IMG/VR virus record: IMGVR_UViG_3300038393_000202
Location: 1 to 24,030 of that record
Length of the DNA stretch: 24,030 nt
Source of the DNA: a virus
Lineage: Duplodnaviria > Caudoviricetes
Direction: 5' to 3' (one strand)
Part shown: piece after piece, positions 6,101 to 10,835 of the stretch
Position numbering within the stretch: the first letter of the stretch is position 1
Layout of the letters: every line of letters starts with the position of its first letter
Position numbers and translations under genes: made by a program
The notes under the pieces: generated by a model
The model's database searches: none
What the model was told of the DNA's origin: nothing
What the model saw: only the letters and a program-made list of their open reading frames with translations

Positions 6101-8252
6101 CGATGGCGAGAAGTGCGAGGATGCCCGCGAACTCCACGGCAGACCCGCCCTTAAGAGCGGCGGCAAGCCCACCCGCATCGCGCATAGCTTGAATCTGCTT
6201 GCGCACGCCCATCAGAGACTCAGCCAACCCAAGACCAACCGTGTACTTCATCGCCATGTTCAGAGCGCCGACGCTACCCATCAGCAGACCCGTCGCAATT
6301 GCCGCCTTCCGAAGAGTCGGAGGCAAGTCATTGAACCACTCCACCGCCGAGCGCCCCACATCGACTGCGGCCTTGAACGAGTCGAGCACGCCTCCATCCT
6401 CTGCGAGCGCGTACCCGAACTCTTGGAACGCCGCCTTCATCGACTCGACCTTCTTCGAGGCAGTCTGCATGGTGCGCTCGTTCTCGCGCATCGAGTAGCC
6501 TAGCGCCTGCTCCTGCGTGTTGACGACCTCTTGGACCTGCGCGAAGTTCTTGAGGAGCGCGATGAAGTAGTTGCGGCGGTAGACACCAGCACCCGTCTGC
6601 ATGATGTCGCGCTTCTGAAGGTCCGTCCACTCCTCCAGCGTGCCGGTCGCATCTGCCATCGACTCCGAGAACATGCCCGCGAGGTCTGCCTGCTCCATCA
6701 TCGAGTCCTGCACATCGGTACTCAGACCGTCCCAATTCTTAGCGAGGTCCGAGATGATGTCGTAGACAGGACGCAACTTATCGGTAGCGGCGTCTGCAAA
6801 GGCGGGGATGCCGCTACCTTGCAACGTCTCCAAGAACTTGCCCTTCGACATGTAGGAGATGATGGAGTTAAGCGAATTTCCGACTTCCTTGCCAGAACGT
6901 CCAGAGGCGGTTTTCATCGCCGTCAGCAGACCAATCGTCTGCTCAAGGGTGATGTTGGCGTTTTTCGCCGCACCGGACGAGCGAAGAAGACCATCCACCA
7001 AGTCCTGTGATGTGACGGCGTACTGATCGGCGACGAGGTTAATCTTGTCGATGACGCCCGTGAGCTGGTCGGCTTGCAAACCCCACTGAGACATGATACC
7101 GATGAGCGACTGAGTGGCTTGCTCCGCATCAAGTTCAGCTGTGTTGAGAGCCAACAACGAGGCGCGAGTGAGTTCGATGCTCTGCTTCACGTCGTAACCA
7201 GCCTGCGCCCAACGGAGCATCACGTCATGGACATCTTGGAAGGAGAACCCGAACTCCTGTCCTAATTCAAAGATAGCCTTACGCATGTCTTCCAACTTGA
7301 ACAGCGGGTCTTCCATAACGCGCCCAAGTTCAATCATCTTCATCTCGATGGAAGAAACGTCGTCGATGCCAGCCCGTATCGCCTGCATACCACCGAATGC
7401 CACGGCCCCAGTAAATAGCCAATCCAACCTGCGATTCAGCATAGAACTGAAACGTCCACGCTGATCGGCGGCGAGAGTAGACACTTGCGCGGCAATCGCC
7501 TTTGTCTCCGCTTGGTTCGCCGCGACCTGCTTGACCTGCTCTGCGGTCAACTGCTTTCCGAGCGCAATCTGCTCCTGATATTCCTTCGTCTCTTGCCGCA
7601 AGACGGCAAGCCGGTCCTTGATAACGCCATCGCCGACGCGCTCCATTTTGATGCGCGACTGAATGGCGGCGAGTTGTGCCTCCAGTTGCGGAAGCGACGA
7701 CTCGGACGCGCCGCGCACCTTGTCAGCGGCGGCGGAATCGGCGGCTTGCTTCTTCGCTTCGGCGGCTAGTTGCTTGTCAACGGCGAGTCCGTGAGCAAGA
7801 CGCTCCGTTTCCCGTTGCGCGTCCTGCTTCGCCTTCTCTGCCCATGCCGCGTTGACTTCCTTGGCGGTTCGCGCCTCTTCGGTAGCGCGTTGCTTGTCCT
7901 GCGCCGCCTTCTGCGCCCACATCTGCTCACTTTGTTGGATGCGCTCCTTCTCGGCGTTTGCCATCTCGCGCTCTACGGCGAGACCGTGTTGCAAACGTTC
8001 CTTGTCGCGTGCCGCATCTTGCCGTGCCTTCTCTGCCCACATCGCTTGTGTCTGCTTAACAATCTTGGCATCCTGCGCGGCCTTCTGCTTCCACGCAGAC
8101 TCCATCTCCTTGGCGACACGAGCGGCTTCCTTGCCCTGCTTGTCAAGGTTGCGCACCTCGTCAGCAAGGTCTTTGACAGACTTCGCGGCAAGGGTTGTAT
8201 CGAGTTGAATCTTGCCGATAATCCGGGTTGACGCATCATCACGTTCAGGCAT
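3183..8252 (-). CDS. Tail tape measure protein, 1689 aa
   Basis: Very long Ala/Gln/Glu/Lys-rich helical protein with a TP901-like core (GYDVKQSIELTRASLLALNTAELD...INLVAD...SGRSGKEVGNSLNSI), hydrophobic segments and a C-terminal MAEGG..LAEAGDDEMVLP motif. G-rich RBS upstream. Confidence 0.93.
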   Translation of the reverse strand: MPERDDASTRIIGKIQLDTTLAAKSVKDLADEVRNLDKQGKEAARVAKEMESAWKQKAAQDAKIVKQTQAMWAEKARQDAARDKERLQHGLAVEREMANAEKERIQQSEQMWAQKAAQDKQRATEEARTAKEVNAAWAEKAKQDAQRETERLAHGLAVDKQLAAEAKKQAADSAAADKVRGASESSLPQLEAQLAAIQSRIKMERVGDGVIKDRLAVLRQETKEYQEQIALGKQLTAEQVKQVAANQAETKAIAAQVSTLAADQRGRFSSMLNRRLDWLFTGAVAFGGMQAIRAGIDDVSSIEMKMIELGRVMEDPLFKLEDMRKAIFELGQEFGFSFQDVHDVMLRWAQAGYDVKQSIELTRASLLALNTAELDAEQATQSLIGIMSQWGLQADQLTGVIDKINLVADQYAVTSQDLVDGLLRSSGAAKNANITLEQTIGLLTAMKTASGRSGKEVGNSLNSIISYMSKGKFLETLQGSGIPAFADAATDKLRPVYDIISDLAKNWDGLSTDVQDSMMEQADLAGMFSESMADATGTLEEWTDLQKRDIMQTGAGVYRRNYFIALLKNFAQVQEVVNTQEQALGYSMRENERTMQTASKKVESMKAAFQEFGYALAEDGGVLDSFKAAVDVGRSAVEWFNDLPPTLRKAAIATGLLMGSVGALNMAMKYTVGLGLAESLMGVRKQIQAMRDAGGLAAALKGGSAVEFAGILALLAIVGGAIYVMDKNVNRLQNTFAQLQSEMDGSIRSLEAQAKVHADNVLAIKKHADEWRALEKARQDALAGDDPDGVTRAADKQAQVIQQVTDALGEETAARLENAHFAEDAVDTVVNAEKEKTKSLRAEIDKQTADYKQALRDQIEEVKKSLKELYVMHAAWWKDFTFFDMLSLGWTGVIETMKKAWHNFLGWMFESSGKFTASLGETIGKVPFLKGMGDDLKSLSDGYMQSAAQHYLAAIESEDRMNGAVKSILDKRKIERQKLLADLYAELDKLNGGGGSGSGAGDGAGQFGTGDDGKGKIATIVDNITAETDAIGRRSDAIERDIAIRKERIAYLTREGASTEELLQADTERAALAGLLSDKQAVLHEQAESARAAYTALAEAQSKVNTSSEEGKKAYADLGAAMEKMLATSGGNSAEWLRIQKEKSDLAREDNAATRQLTKSLDDLKQMYDDGTIILDAYIFALEQLDRTTGAAASATKALNDEQAKAFKELWTSRITSALEKKKSDIAAQVKLLEDVLTLYDEAGRGDSRGDARHALEKAFGALQGLPTGATMPSMGGVQSLINDALAAFKNVDLGDLDPAAFASLMKSDLAMLKSFAFNAEGYLEAVGDATEDRLKAIANELKSIDRELETKLAALQVQLDALDAQDKQDERQKSTDEHTKRLKALHDQMVWTTDPFELAALRKQVAEEEQTWAEQRREWDKQDARESIQDQMDAARKEAELRKEKLQAEQEALQEQQRVMTEALQALLTYIKSEMEARKTALEDNKKDLEESSAAIDEALKGVDEKVVGQLAKMAALDPEFYKKASSLIGNIVSGINAGLPSLQSAINAVNSALSGMGTAGKTVTLPPVPVPSGGGGGGGNGRINMMAEGGFAKARSGGYLSILAEAGDDEMVLPRRYAVPMLSEALATVMRSSPSMPSWDMGALVGAIQRGLSAMQFYGTVDVRLPDGTIERQVVRLFSGLQQAVRV

Positions 8253-8267
8253 GTAAACACCCCCCCT

Positions 8268-8313
8268 ACAAAGCGAAGGAGTAGGTACTACCGTACCTAC
8301 TCCTTCGCTTTGT
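8268..8313. terminator. Perfect 21-bp inverted repeat (weak bidirectional terminator or RNA-processing stem)
   Basis: ACAAAGCGAAGGAGTAGGTAC (8268-8288), loop TACC, GTACCTACTCCTTCGCTTTGT (8293-8313). The hairpin is certain; its function is inferred. Confidence 0.6.
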
Positions 8314-8336
8314 GGGACTGCGCCTTAAGGCTCGCC

Positions 8337-8422
8337 GCCAAATAGAACCGCGCCTCGCCAGTCCTGTCCATCCCTGACCCCGCCATACCACGCCTTTGCC
8401 GTACCGCGCCTTGCCTCGCCTC
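8337..8422 (-). repeat. (NN-GGY)n pentamer array B, putative gapped guide RNA
   Basis: Minus strand GA-GGC GA-GGC AA-GGC GC-GGT AC-GGC AAA-GGC GT-GGT AT-GGC GG-GGT CA-GGG AT-GGA CA-GGA CT-GGC GA-GGC GC-GGT (8422-8347): 15 units, 12 GGY, one extra A. Then in-register TC-TAT TT-GGC. Confidence 0.9.
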
Positions 8423-8484
8423 GTTAGCCTATCTCCTCAGCGGTAGGAGGCTACCCTACCGGACTCCCCGAAGGGAGTTTCGAT
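8423..8484 (-). ncRNA. Type II hammerhead ribozyme HH2 with pseudoknot
   Basis: Minus strand ATC-GAAA-CTCCC-TTCG-GGGAG-TC^-CGGTAGG-GTAGCCT-CCTACCG-CTGAGGA-GAT-AGGCTAAC. Complete core (CUGANGA, GAAA, GUC), stems I-III, and loop I TAGCCT pairing with 3' AGGCTA. Predicted cut between 8462 and 8461. Confidence 0.9.
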
Positions 8485-8574
8485 GCCGCGCCAGACCGTG
8501 CCTTTCCATTCCCCGCCCATCCTGACCTTGCCAGACCATGCCCCGTCACGCCAAACCCCACCTTGCGGTGCGAC
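8485..8574 (-). repeat. (NN-GGY)n pentamer array A, putative gapped guide RNA
   Basis: Minus strand GT-CGC AC-CGC AA-GGT GG-GGT TT-GGC GT-GAC GG-GGC AT-GGT CT-GGC AA-GGT CA-GGA TG-GGC GG-GGA AT-GGA AA-GGC AC-GGT CT-GGC GC-GGC: 18 units in exact 5-nt register (12 GGY, 3 GGA, 2 CGC, 1 GAC). Confidence 0.9.
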
Positions 8575-8637
8575 GTTAGCCTATCTCTTCAGTCGTGGTC
8601 GGCCATCTCCACAAGACCGGATTACTCCGGTTTCGAC
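8575..8637 (-). ncRNA. Type II hammerhead ribozyme HH1 with pseudoknot
   Basis: Minus strand GTC-GAAA-CCGGA-GTAA-TCCGG-TC^-TTGTGG-AGATGGCCGA-CCACGA-CTGAAGA-GAT-AGGCTAAC. Complete core; stems differ from HH2 but still pair; loop I TGGCC pairs with 3' GGCTA. Begins immediately after the HNH stop. Predicted cut between 8615 and 8614. Confidence 0.88.
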
Positions 8638-8928
8638 TCAACCATTCCACACCAGTTCGCGCCAGTTCGGGGGGATGATTCCTTTCGCCAGCGCCGACGC
8701 GATCATCCCTCTGTGACGCTGGTCGTCGCGAAGTACGTGACACTTGTAGCAAAGAGTCCGAAGGTTCTTCAAAGAGTTGTCCGCATTCTTTCCGCTCTTG
8801 ATGTGGTCGATGTGGCACTCTTGGAGAGACTGCGGAGCTTGACAACGAACACACCGTCTCCCGTCGCACTCCCATACAATCCGCCTAAGTTCCCGCCACA
8901 CTTCTTTAGGAGGACGTTTCTTAGGCAC
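8638..8928 (-). CDS. HNH endonuclease (McrA-like zinc-binding), 96 aa
   Basis: DGRRCVRC...CHIDHIK...NSLKNLRTLCYKCH = CxxC-DH-N-CxxCH signature. GTG start at 8928 overlaps the end of the RAMP gene by 8 nt. Confidence 0.88.
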   Translation of the reverse strand: MPKKRPPKEVWRELRRIVWECDGRRCVRCQAPQSLQECHIDHIKSGKNADNSLKNLRTLCYKCHVLRDDQRHRGMIASALAKGIIPPNWRELVWNG

Positions 8929-9535
8929 CCCGCTTCGCCTTCTCCTCCTCGATTTCGAAGGACTCAACCACAAAGCGCCCAAATCCGATGCCACGACCAT
9001 CGCCAAGGCCAACGAGCCTTCCCGCATCGTGAATGACCGCTTGCATCTCGCCGCGACTAACAATCGTCACGTCCCAAACGATGGTGAAGGAGCATGACCA
9101 GCCAACAGAAGCGGCTACGCGATAGCGGACGTTGCGGCCCTTGGTGGCTTTGTTGACGACCCCTCTAACATCGAGGTACACGGGTTCATCGACGGTGTTA
9201 ATTAGGTCGGGGTAGATGTTGTCGGGTACGAATCGGTCAACGAGGATACGGTCATCCATTATTTGAAGCGTAGCCGCTACTAGGGACTGGATACTCCCCT
9301 TTCCCTTCTTAGTGTGCTTCGCCGCATCCCGCAAGCACCCGAAAGCGTAACTCGGCTCAAGATACAACTGCTTGTCCTTGGTCATCAGAACAGTGCGCTT
9401 CCACTCTTCTGGATCGTTGCCCGCTACCCCTGTGCGCTCCTTCTTCTCCAGAGGTAGCGCATCCGGGCCAAAGCGGTGCCAAAGAATCGGGCGTGTCCCA
9501 CGAATCGAAACCCGTGCCGTTGCGATGTTTCCCAT
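8921..9535 (-). CDS. Stand-alone RAMP/Cas7-like RNA-binding protein (Vipr-like), 204 aa
   Basis: N-terminal strand VSIRGTRPILWH, LYLEPSYAFGCLRDAA (resembles the RAMP P.IP.SSLKG.LR motif), and C-terminal glycine-rich loop AGRLVGLGDGRGIGFGRF. Strong GAGGAGG RBS. No other cas genes in the window. Confidence 0.78.
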   Translation of the reverse strand: MGNIATARVSIRGTRPILWHRFGPDALPLEKKERTGVAGNDPEEWKRTVLMTKDKQLYLEPSYAFGCLRDAAKHTKKGKGSIQSLVAATLQIMDDRILVDRFVPDNIYPDLINTVDEPVYLDVRGVVNKATKGRNVRYRVAASVGWSCSFTIVWDVTIVSRGEMQAVIHDAGRLVGLGDGRGIGFGRFVVESFEIEEEKAKRGA

Positions 9536-9583: not shown

Positions 9584-9612
9584 GTTATACACCATGTCGA
9601 TATCACTGTCAA
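9584..9612 (-). promoter_or_regulatory. sigma70/sigmaA promoter for the RAMP-HNH-ncRNA unit
   Basis: TTGACA (9612-9607), 17 nt, TATAAC (9589-9584). The -35 overlaps the HTH stop codon. Confidence 0.8.
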
Positions 9613-9794
9613 CCCTCTTCTTTAAGGACAGGCTTCTTCAACTCCGCCACGTCATCGGCGCGAAAGTGGTTCTCCTTGCTACCGACCATCTTGTATGCCT
9701 TGATTCCGCCGCTCTTGATAAGCCGTTGTAAAGTCGGACGTGAGATTCCCAACTCCTTCAACACCTGCGCCGTAGTCAACCATTCCTGTGACAC
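9609..9794 (-). CDS. Excisionase/MerR-like helix-turn-helix DNA-binding protein, 61 aa
   Basis: WLTTAQVLKELGISRPTLQRLIKSGGIKAYK..FRADDV pattern typical of HTH_17/excisionase proteins. GGAAGGGGGAG RBS before GTG. Confidence 0.85.
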   Translation of the reverse strand: MSQEWLTTAQVLKELGISRPTLQRLIKSGGIKAYKMVGSKENHFRADDVAELKKPVLKEEG

Positions 9795-9817: not shown

Positions 9818-9846
9818 AGTATAAGACAATTCATACACCATGTCAA
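9818..9846 (-). promoter_or_regulatory. sigma70/sigmaA promoter for the HTH gene
   Basis: TTGACA (9846-9841), 17 nt, TATACT (9823-9818). Confidence 0.8.
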
Positions 9847-9955: not shown

Positions 9956-10372
9956 ATGGCTAGGAATCGTCGGTTCAAGTTGCCGGATACGCTGACGGAA
10001 AAGGACTGGAACACCCTGCTATCGGTCGCCGTTGATTACGCGATGTGCGAAAACATGGGAGCCTTCATGTCGCACGTCGAGTCCTTTACGTCTACAGTGT
10101 CCGTCATGTGCGGGTTGGAAAGTCCCGAAGTCGCCAACGGGCTAAAGACAACCGCGAAGTCATTCCTCAAGCAGATTGAAGACATCCAAACCGACATGAT
10201 GCTCGCGGCGGCTTCAGCTGGTATCGCCATAGGTAAGCGCGAGGGTCTGCGGGCTGGAATAAAGGCACTCGGCGATAGGTCAGCTAAGAACATGCTTCGA
10301 CTGCTCACGGCCATCACGAGCGACAGGGCCGCAGACAGCACACTCAAGAGCGTTAACAAGGTGACAGCATAG
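9956..10372 (+). CDS. Hypothetical helical protein, 138 aa
   Basis: GAGGAGG RBS at 9940-9946, ATG start, downstream hairpin. No recognised motif. Confidence 0.7.
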   Translation: MARNRRFKLPDTLTEKDWNTLLSVAVDYAMCENMGAFMSHVESFTSTVSVMCGLESPEVANGLKTTAKSFLKQIEDIQTDMMLAAASAGIAIGKREGLRAGIKALGDRSAKNMLRLLTAITSDRAADSTLKSVNKVTA

Positions 10373-10460: not shown

Positions 10461-10484
10461 ACACTTGTAAAGGAGGGATTGGTT

Positions 10485-10835
10485 ATGGAATGGCGTTGCA
10501 CCCGTTGCGGGTCCGACCACATCAATCACAAGCCCAAGAGTGAAATGGGAACGATACCGCTCACAATCCTCATCGCTGGCGGGTTGACCGTTATCGCCTG
10601 GAAGGTGATAGGCGCGCTCACCAACGGCGGAATGTTGGAAGGCGCTATCCTCTTCTTCATGCTCTGCATCGTCACCGTGCCGTTGGTGCTCGTGATTGCT
10701 GTCGTCATCGCATCCGCCATCACCGGCGAGGGCAAGATGCACACCGCAACCTGCCACAACTGCGGCAACGAGTGGCATGAAAAAGGGGCGTGCCCGCCTA
10801 AGCAGACCGCCCCTTCTAGCCATCCATCACGTTGA
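10485..10835 (+). CDS. Small membrane protein with split zinc ribbon (CxxC-2TM-CxxC)
   Basis: AGGAGG (10471-10476) 8 nt before ATG 10485. CTRC, two hydrophobic stretches, then CHNC. Confidence 0.75.
   Translation: MEWRCTRCGSDHINHKPKSEMGTIPLTILIAGGLTVIAWKVIGALTNGGMLEGAILFFMLCIVTVPLVLVIAVVIASAITGEGKMHTATCHNCGNEWHEKGACPPKQTAPSSHPSR

Follow-up and report, generated by a model that had tools for sequence, protein, structure and literature searches.

A VIPR-associated HNH nuclease in a phage tail operon as a candidate for RNA-guided intronless homing

The window investigated here, the whole 24,030 bases of a virus record (Caudoviricetes; IMGVR_UViG_3300038393_000202), carries terminase, portal, capsid and tail genes on its minus strand, and on the same strand an inserted cassette separates the tail genes from the tape measure protein (TMP) gene. 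Judging from its genes and arrays, this cassette is a VIPR system (a Vipr protein with GGYNN guides), and the clade of its small HNH nuclease is tied to Vipr across genomes in a near-obligate manner. The best explanation, to which we give about an even chance, seems to be RNA-guided intronless homing: the guides would likely direct the HNH protein to the TMP gene of a relative co-infecting the cell, and the cassette would be copied in during repair of the cut, together with the resistant allele.

The cassette and its parts

Read along the minus strand, the cassette runs from a promoter match through an HTH gene, the 204-aa RAMP gene and the 96-aa HNH gene into 385 non-coding bases, which hold, in this order, hammerhead 1, 16 GGYNN units, hammerhead 2, 15 units and a 24-bp hairpin (Table 1). 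Among the contigs of four DNA runs, a single contig of a public soil run, possibly the source sample itself, is identical to the window over 8124-9223, and no joints skipping the cassette were found.

Table 1. Features of the cassette and of the adjoining TMP gene (positions in the window)
Feature	Position	Strand	Basis
Tape measure protein (TMP), 1689 aa	3183..8252	-	PF10145, E 1e-30
Own TMP site homologous to guide 1 target, 5/16 dinucleotides, predicted resistant	7062..7109	-	
Own TMP site homologous to guide 2 target, 8/15 dinucleotides, predicted resistant	8193..8237	-	
24-bp hairpin, between array 2 and TMP start	8265..8316	.	Folding z -9
Guide array 2, 15 units (one of 6 nt), decodes to diverged TMP codons 6-20	8345..8420	-	
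Type II hammerhead 2, cleavage predicted after 8462	8431..8484	-	Descriptor search
Guide array 1, 16 GGYNN units, decodes to diverged TMP codons 382-397	8483..8562	-	
Type II hammerhead 1, cleavage predicted after 8615	8583..8637	-	Descriptor search
HNH nuclease, 96 aa, VIPR accessory (vap) gene	8638..8928	-	Pfam HNH, predicted structure, alignment of 149
Vipr RAMP protein, 204 aa, glycine-rich C-terminal loop	8921..9535	-	Foldseek to Csm3/Cas7 chains
HTH_17 protein, 61 aa, upstream of vipr	9609..9794	-	Pfam, E 2.8e-11
Sigma-70-type promoter match, 11/12, ahead of HTH-vipr-HNH	9818..9846	-	Consensus match only

The HNH gene extends from a GTG at 8928 to a TGA ending at 8638. The RAMP ORF (8921-9535) ends 8 nt beyond the HNH start codon, and a type II hammerhead (8637-8583) begins directly behind the HNH stop; this confirms the initial annotation in describing the HNH gene as overlapping the RAMP stop and abutting the first hammerhead. 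A longer 141-aa frame opening with TTG was disfavoured, because the homologues share the start position of the 96-aa form. Pfam HNH (PF01844) covers residues 26-66 of the protein (E 1.2e-7) with no second Pfam family, and the structural model is one compact domain (pLDDT 92.5); no extra DNA-binding domain was detected in the 96 residues by Pfam or in the predicted structure, and the earlier remark that no separate DNA-recognition domain is obvious thus holds. D41, H42, H64, C26 and C60 are present in all 149 aligned HNH proteins of the clade; going by HNH motifs, we take C26, C29, C60 and C63 to be zinc ligands and D41-H42, N55 and H64 to form the active site. The C-terminal 25 residues are conserved and clade-specific. 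Foldseek gave weak matches only, the best of them to T4 endonuclease VII (E 0.007), and the protein weakly resembles the defence HNH domains of ZorE/PtuB and Cap5. In GenBank phages neither vipr nor the HNH gene was found, the lone partial HNH match being 39% identical.

VIPR systems, described in 2026, consist of a minimal RAMP protein and guides of GGY/NN units (10.64898/2026.04.26.720920). The model of the 204-aa protein (pLDDT 88) matches Csm3/Cas7-type chains (Foldseek E 1e-8), its glycine-rich loop is conserved and no Pfam family was assigned to it. The window contains no CRISPR-type repeat family, the RAMP gene lies outside a CRISPR locus, and where 9-16 tandem GGY/NN units are expected beside vipr, arrays of 16 and 15 are present; the assignment to VIPR follows from the lone RAMP protein together with these arrays. 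Decoding also conforms to the 1-nt skip of VIPR, since guide 2 fits best with a skip of 1, in frame in TMP, and a guide of a sister cassette fits a relative at 13/14 units; skips of 0, 2 and 3 gave nothing beyond chance for the window guides. As in VIPR types III and V, the vap gene encodes a nuclease (an HNH protein with an intact predicted active site), and the locus is set in a phage tail operon, not in a defence island. According to the text available of the original description, type II VIPR was shown to bind DNA under the direction of its guides, with a 1-nt skip, and to repress, hammerhead-interspersed arrays occur in types I and V, HNH is among the accessory (vap) domains, and nucleases are encoded only by types III and V, which show enrichment in defence islands and probably act by destroying targets (10.64898/2026.04.26.720920); the available text of the structure paper calls the role of the accessory genes unclear (10.64898/2026.04.26.720927). 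A VIPR with HNH and hammerheads is already published, and the parts of the cassette are known.

The type II hammerhead has a catalytic core and three stems and is open at stem II. The descriptor for it matches both window copies and 24 of 159 related loci, with no matches on 1.67 Mb of distant flank; Rfam models match neither of the window hammerheads, and free-energy folding lends these two no support (z about 0). By eye, loop I seems to covary with bases past stem II in L020, L031, L054, L102, L169 and others, which appears as for a pseudoknot. The hairpin, for which no U-tail terminator was called, is a possible end of the cassette transcript. A long hairpin between the last array and the TMP start was seen in four cassettes (window, L134, L102 and L021). 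In the window it extends into the ribosome-binding region of TMP, whose start at 8252 lies 93 nt past array 2, so that the gene sits past two ribozymes and the hairpin.

The HTH_17 protein is a possible regulator of the cassette, and its gene is not conserved beside related cassettes. One 12-mer occurs twice on the minus strand: at 9844-9833 it overlaps the promoter match that precedes the HTH gene, and at 9598-9587 a second, near-consensus promoter (9612-9584, identified by eye) that precedes vipr. The HTH protein may use this 12-mer as an operator. The same insert bears two plus-strand ORFs opposing the tail operon, encoding a 138-aa protein of unknown type (9956-10372) and a 118-aa membrane protein (10479-10835) with zinc-ribbon-like ends, and a similar small ORF adjoins the cassette of L102.

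Co-occurrence of HNH and Vipr across genomes

Scans of three collections seeded with the HNH protein, with the best 80 of 95 matches retained for genomes and the best 80 of 251 for metagenomes, gave 201 loci with 171 distinct HNH sequences, 166 of which could be tested (the other five have too little upstream DNA). In 161 of these 166, a co-directional vipr gene lies no more than 1.2 kb upstream; the HNH gene overlaps the vipr stop in 80 of the 161, by the same 8 nt in 30. Of the five HNH loci lacking vipr, four retain an array. Viral Viprs at 50% identity or above are accompanied by HNH in nine of nine cases, those at 37-39% in none of five. The distances among HNH and among Vipr proteins are correlated as well (Mantel rho 0.53 for 149 pairs, the maximum after shuffling being 0.19), and similar cassettes share 59-75% identity in HNH and 58-72% in Vipr. 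Association of this clade with the RAMP gene had been put forward as a check on the coupling seen in the window, absence of such association counting against it, and the check was passed: the HNH clade is tied to Vipr, nearly obligately.

L141, one of the five loci lacking vipr, and L134 represent the same phage without and with vipr, the deleted form keeping HNH and array; L141 could borrow Vipr from a co-infecting phage. At L130:6082-9572, two vipr copies lie about 2.9 kb apart with a TMP gene adjoining.

Guides and the genes beside them

The window guides were decoded by the 1-nt skip rule and scored by dinucleotide matches. Guide 2 yields a variant of TMP codons 6-20 (8/15 dinucleotides, 21/30 nt) in which the non-matching codons are conservative changes, and across the whole window 1 shuffled guide in 2000 attained its amino-acid score; at the nucleotide level it is modestly above chance, 19 of 1000 shuffles reaching 21 nt. 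Guide 1 yields a variant of codons 382-397 (5/16 dinucleotides, 17/32 nt) with a score reached by 24 of 2000 shuffled guides, and at the nucleotide level no signal was obtained, the TMP site not being its top match in the window. The statement that the cassette sits directly upstream of the gene its arrays resemble therefore stands for the position and for guide 2, and is weak for guide 1; judged from these comparisons, the resemblance is real but partial. The self matches of the window guides (31-53%) are well under the 80% threshold for targets used in the available text of 10.64898/2026.04.26.720920, and the simplest reading would be that a related TMP gene was the one for which the guides were written, the own allele not being a target. 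A passage on the mismatch tolerance of guides was not found in the available text of 10.64898/2026.04.26.720927 and 10.64898/2026.10.15.759431.

A true target of the window guides, sought in IMG/VR with two exact patterns, gave no matches; a pattern with two mismatches had one match in 401 genomes, in an unrelated surface protein, and this was taken as chance. Searches with the TMP N-terminus returned itself only, the TMP query found nothing in 401 and in a further five genomes, and no relative of the major tail protein was found in IMG/VR. Guide 2 fits none of 119 related TMPs better than the own allele, which is the top (tied) fit among all 120, and guide 1 fits best at 9/16, as opposed to 6 for the own allele.

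A more complete comparison is offered by a sister cassette located at the terminase-portal junction, which among the portal relatives of L117 (best 80 of 242) is present in two, L117 itself and L198. The terminase-portal gap measures 2005 and 2449 nt in the two carriers versus 375 nt in five close relatives. The first guide of L117 fits its own portal gene at 10/14 units and that of five of seven close cassette-less relatives at 12-13/14; over 74 cassette-less relatives, 45 fit better than L117, 21 equally and eight worse. The first guide of L198 fits its own portal at 7/18 and five of the seven close relatives at 12-14/18; the remaining two, which are identical, show no improvement over the carrier. 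It should be noted that the decision to trim the guides to 14 or 18 leading units was made with the data in view; at full length, carrier and relatives score 10/18 versus 13/18 and 7/21 versus 14/21. The other guides of these two cassettes have no target in the portal family. The first 200 nt of the carriers' portal genes are 53-73% identical to the five close relatives and 84-89% to each other, and the remainder of the gene is mostly 80-90% identical to these relatives. As the carriers share a divergent 5' segment in a gene otherwise similar, the predicted resistant segment seems, on this alignment, to travel with the cassette in L117 and L198. The expectation that cassette-less alleles fit the guides better was thus borne out at the terminase-portal junction, in five of seven close relatives, and found no close relative to be applied to in the case of the window TMP.

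For a broader view, 157 guides from 105 loci of at least 5 kb were scored locally against their own flanks, with cassettes masked and 60 shuffles per guide. Seventeen guides resemble flanking sequence at a z of at least 3 and 140 have no neighbour match, and none of the guides exceeds 69% in its maximum self match. A distance of at most 2 kb from the cassette applies to 16 of the 17 matching guides versus 57 of the 140 others (p 3e-5), and neighbour-matching guides occur at 12 of 42 viral or metagenomic loci versus 3 of 63 genome loci (p 0.001). The set of passing guides depends on the parser: a strict one gave 11 of 133 at z above 3, and a greedy one merged arrays, whereby the window, L102 and L107 fell from the top list. 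Three cassettes set in differing tail modules (window, L134 and L102) have a last guide whose decoded sequence is a variant of the N-terminus of the TMP beside it; for L134 the z of this guide is 3.8 with the greedy parser and 1.7 with local scoring. HNH-less viral VIPRs, a small control of five loci, have neighbour matches in none of 17 guides. A virion or packaging gene flanks 17 of 39 annotated viral or metagenomic loci, TMP doing so in eight, with some flanks picked by hand. In 8 of the 35 bacterial clade loci scanned (out of 63), the nearest long ORF is a defence gene, a count given without a background rate; neighbours of this kind agree with the published description of nuclease-bearing VIPRs.

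Some of the best-fitting alleles sit in phages which themselves carry a cassette (L213, L161), and this fits guide warfare as well as homing. A guide of L152 (L152:4227-4291) fits the vipr gene of L021 at 12/13 dinucleotides and its own vipr less well, and may on this match be directed against VIPR. Three guides, L213:2137-2221, L178:858-942 and L178:469-553, decode to HNH-like motifs, two of them like small phage HNH genes and one like the N-terminus of a rival VIPR HNH (8/17, near background). Guides of the related cassettes L109, L173 and L194 together tile a short segment, L161:2003-2110, within one large ORF (12/17, 18/24 and 14/19); L194 has a homologue of this ORF, and its guide fits the own copy poorly.

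Readings of the cassette and known systems

In intronless homing, an intergenic nuclease cuts a neighbouring gene at a site hundreds to thousands of bases off, followed by break repair and co-conversion, and the seg and mob genes of T4 are precedents for such a layout (PMC2988022, PMC13565253 for the process, PMC2988022 for the genes, in the text available). Applied to the window, one transcript would span vipr, HNH and arrays, from which the two hammerheads, observed in their anatomy, are presumed to free the guides. Vipr would coat a guide and read DNA with a 1-nt skip, as extrapolated from type II VIPR, and the HNH protein, devoid of a specificity domain of its own, would nick or cut at the site bound by Vipr. 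The carrier presumably escapes cutting because its own allele mismatches about half of the dinucleotides. Recombinational repair may then spread the cassette, and rivals failing to repair would be excluded. As a generalisation, which in our judgement falls somewhat short of an even chance, phage VIPR-HNH cassettes could be RNA-programmable free-standing homing endonucleases, i.e. a mobile two-gene element that inserts at structural junctions of several kinds (tape measure, portal, terminase) and, at each, acquires an 80-nt guide that re-aims it at the relatives' version of the adjoining gene. The bacterial copies beside defence genes count against homing, which is not needed there. The initial annotation had proposed that the RAMP-guide complex recruits the HNH protein against the TMP gene of a co-infecting phage, for exclusion or homing; its coupling of HNH to Vipr and the distinction from packaging nucleases are upheld, and the better fit of cassette-less alleles is upheld in the sister portal family only.

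Exclusion of siblings or superinfecting phages, through guide-directed destruction of competing relatives and with no meaningful homing, appears unlikely as the whole account, yet deserves serious attention, for all coupling and allele data fit it. According to this reading, the cassette stays by its target gene as linkage to the resistant allele stops recombinants from cutting themselves, and the junction tolerates inserts; two unrelated small ORFs occupy the same junction, and the cassette has a match to a sigma-70-type promoter of its own. Guides matching the alleles of other carriers, the vipr gene of another locus (12/13) and HNH-like motifs would likewise be expected, and VIPRs are reported to act on competing elements (10.64898/2026.10.15.759431, in the text available). 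What exclusion alone leaves unexplained is the presence of the same cassette in several unrelated structural junctions with guides locally matched each time, as well as the divergent portal 5' segment common to both carriers. Improbable, in our opinion, is an HNH protein switched on by target binding to cut without specificity, so that the co-infected cell dies or DNA is broadly degraded in an abortive manner. The lack of a specificity domain, the weak likeness to ZorE/PtuB and Cap5, the collateral cutting of Cas5-HNH (PMC10910872, text available in part) and the chromosomal copies adjoining defence genes would all agree with it, but non-specific killing gives no reason for phage targets to lie within about 1 kb of the cassette (16/17).

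Still more improbable is a Vipr that only represses a TMP gene, that of a rival or its own, with the HNH protein as passenger or non-catalytic helper. Repression is the sole activity demonstrated for VIPR (10.64898/2026.04.26.720920, as far as its available text extends), guide 2 spans the first TMP codons, and the own allele shares the top rank for this guide among the 120 TMPs; against this, the catalytic residues are invariant (149/149), the coupling of HNH to vipr is near obligate and the self matches are far under the 80% threshold of that paper. An ordinary HNH protein, either of the packaging type or a stand-alone, protein-guided homing endonuclease standing beside vipr by chance, would account for the size and the generic HNH profile matches, and is nevertheless very improbable. 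Terminase-associated packaging HNH proteins are encoded beside the terminase genes and are independent of other systems, but here the HNH gene lies 10.7 kb from the terminase gene (terL), many bacterial genome loci carry the clade, there is no extra DNA-binding domain, and vipr is absent in only 5 of 166 loci, four of them with an array; the co-occurrence count already contradicts this reading. A packaging identity, named in the initial annotation as the case that would overturn its proposal, was rejected on the distance from terL and the linkage to vipr.

The clade supplies a conserved 96-aa nuclease, guides predicted to be self-processing and predicted pairs of sensitive and resistant alleles, and guided cleavage is therefore directly testable. 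If homing holds true, it would provide a selfish reason for phages to possess RAMP-guided nucleases before their use in host defence, and a homing element could escape the dead end of target loss by swapping the guide, not the protein. RNA-programmable homing, if true, would make the HNH protein the natural nuclease of a PAM-less guided cutting system of 300 residues, and would imply a guide-writing step which samples local sequence. For tool building it is of relevance that Vipr and HNH together are very small (204 + 96 aa) and that type II VIPR is PAM-less. Neighbour-directed homing by VIPR was not found in the literature covered, subscription journals and bioRxiv supplements lying outside the search. 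The word 'homing' is absent from the main texts of three VIPR preprints and, for 10.64898/2026.04.26.720920, from the supplement text, and 'tape measure' from the main text of the latter, whose figures and data files may contain such loci. The VIPR papers, in the text available, report repression only and no cutting VIPR, leaving accessory nucleases open.

Compared with known systems (the cited sources being available in part), the cassette shares with the nuclease-bearing VIPR types III and V the Vipr RAMP protein, GGY/NN guides, the 1-nt skip and one accessory gene, and with the VIPRs of 10.64898/2026.04.26.720920 in general the HNH vap domain, hammerhead-interspersed arrays and the lack of a self match at 80%. 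Unlike the published nuclease VIPRs, which are described as enriched in defence islands and as host immunity, it is borne by a phage in its tail operon, with guides pointing toward the homologue of a neighbouring essential gene. The SUSP1 type II VIPR is phage-borne too and aimed at competing mobile elements (10.64898/2026.04.26.720920, 10.64898/2026.10.15.759431); however, it acts by transcriptional silencing, lacks a nuclease and encodes a DNA-binding vap1, and its target is a satellite recombinase rather than the homologue of a neighbour. Cas5-HNH and Cas8-HNH Cascade, in which an HNH domain added to a RAMP complex brings about guided cleavage of dsDNA (PMC10910872), would resemble the cassette in joining HNH to a RAMP-based RNA-guided system; in these, HNH is fused to a Cascade subunit, CRISPR spacers are contiguous and a PAM is needed, whereas the HNH protein of the window is a separate 96-aa gene product. 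With Seg and Mob of T4 the cassette has in common a nuclease gene between conserved genes, a neighbouring target and an allele-based distinction of self and non-self (both here predicted from the guides) and, in the sister portal family, empty sites in relatives. Of the traits of homing endonucleases, a neighbouring conserved target with a differing own allele is thus present by prediction, and a DNA-binding domain within the nuclease is not, the protein being a single 96-aa HNH domain. In contrast to Seg and Mob with their fused DNA-binding domain, specificity would come from swappable RNA guides, several per element, and a separate RAMP filament; the cassette would thereby work like free-standing homing endonucleases without being a classical member of them.
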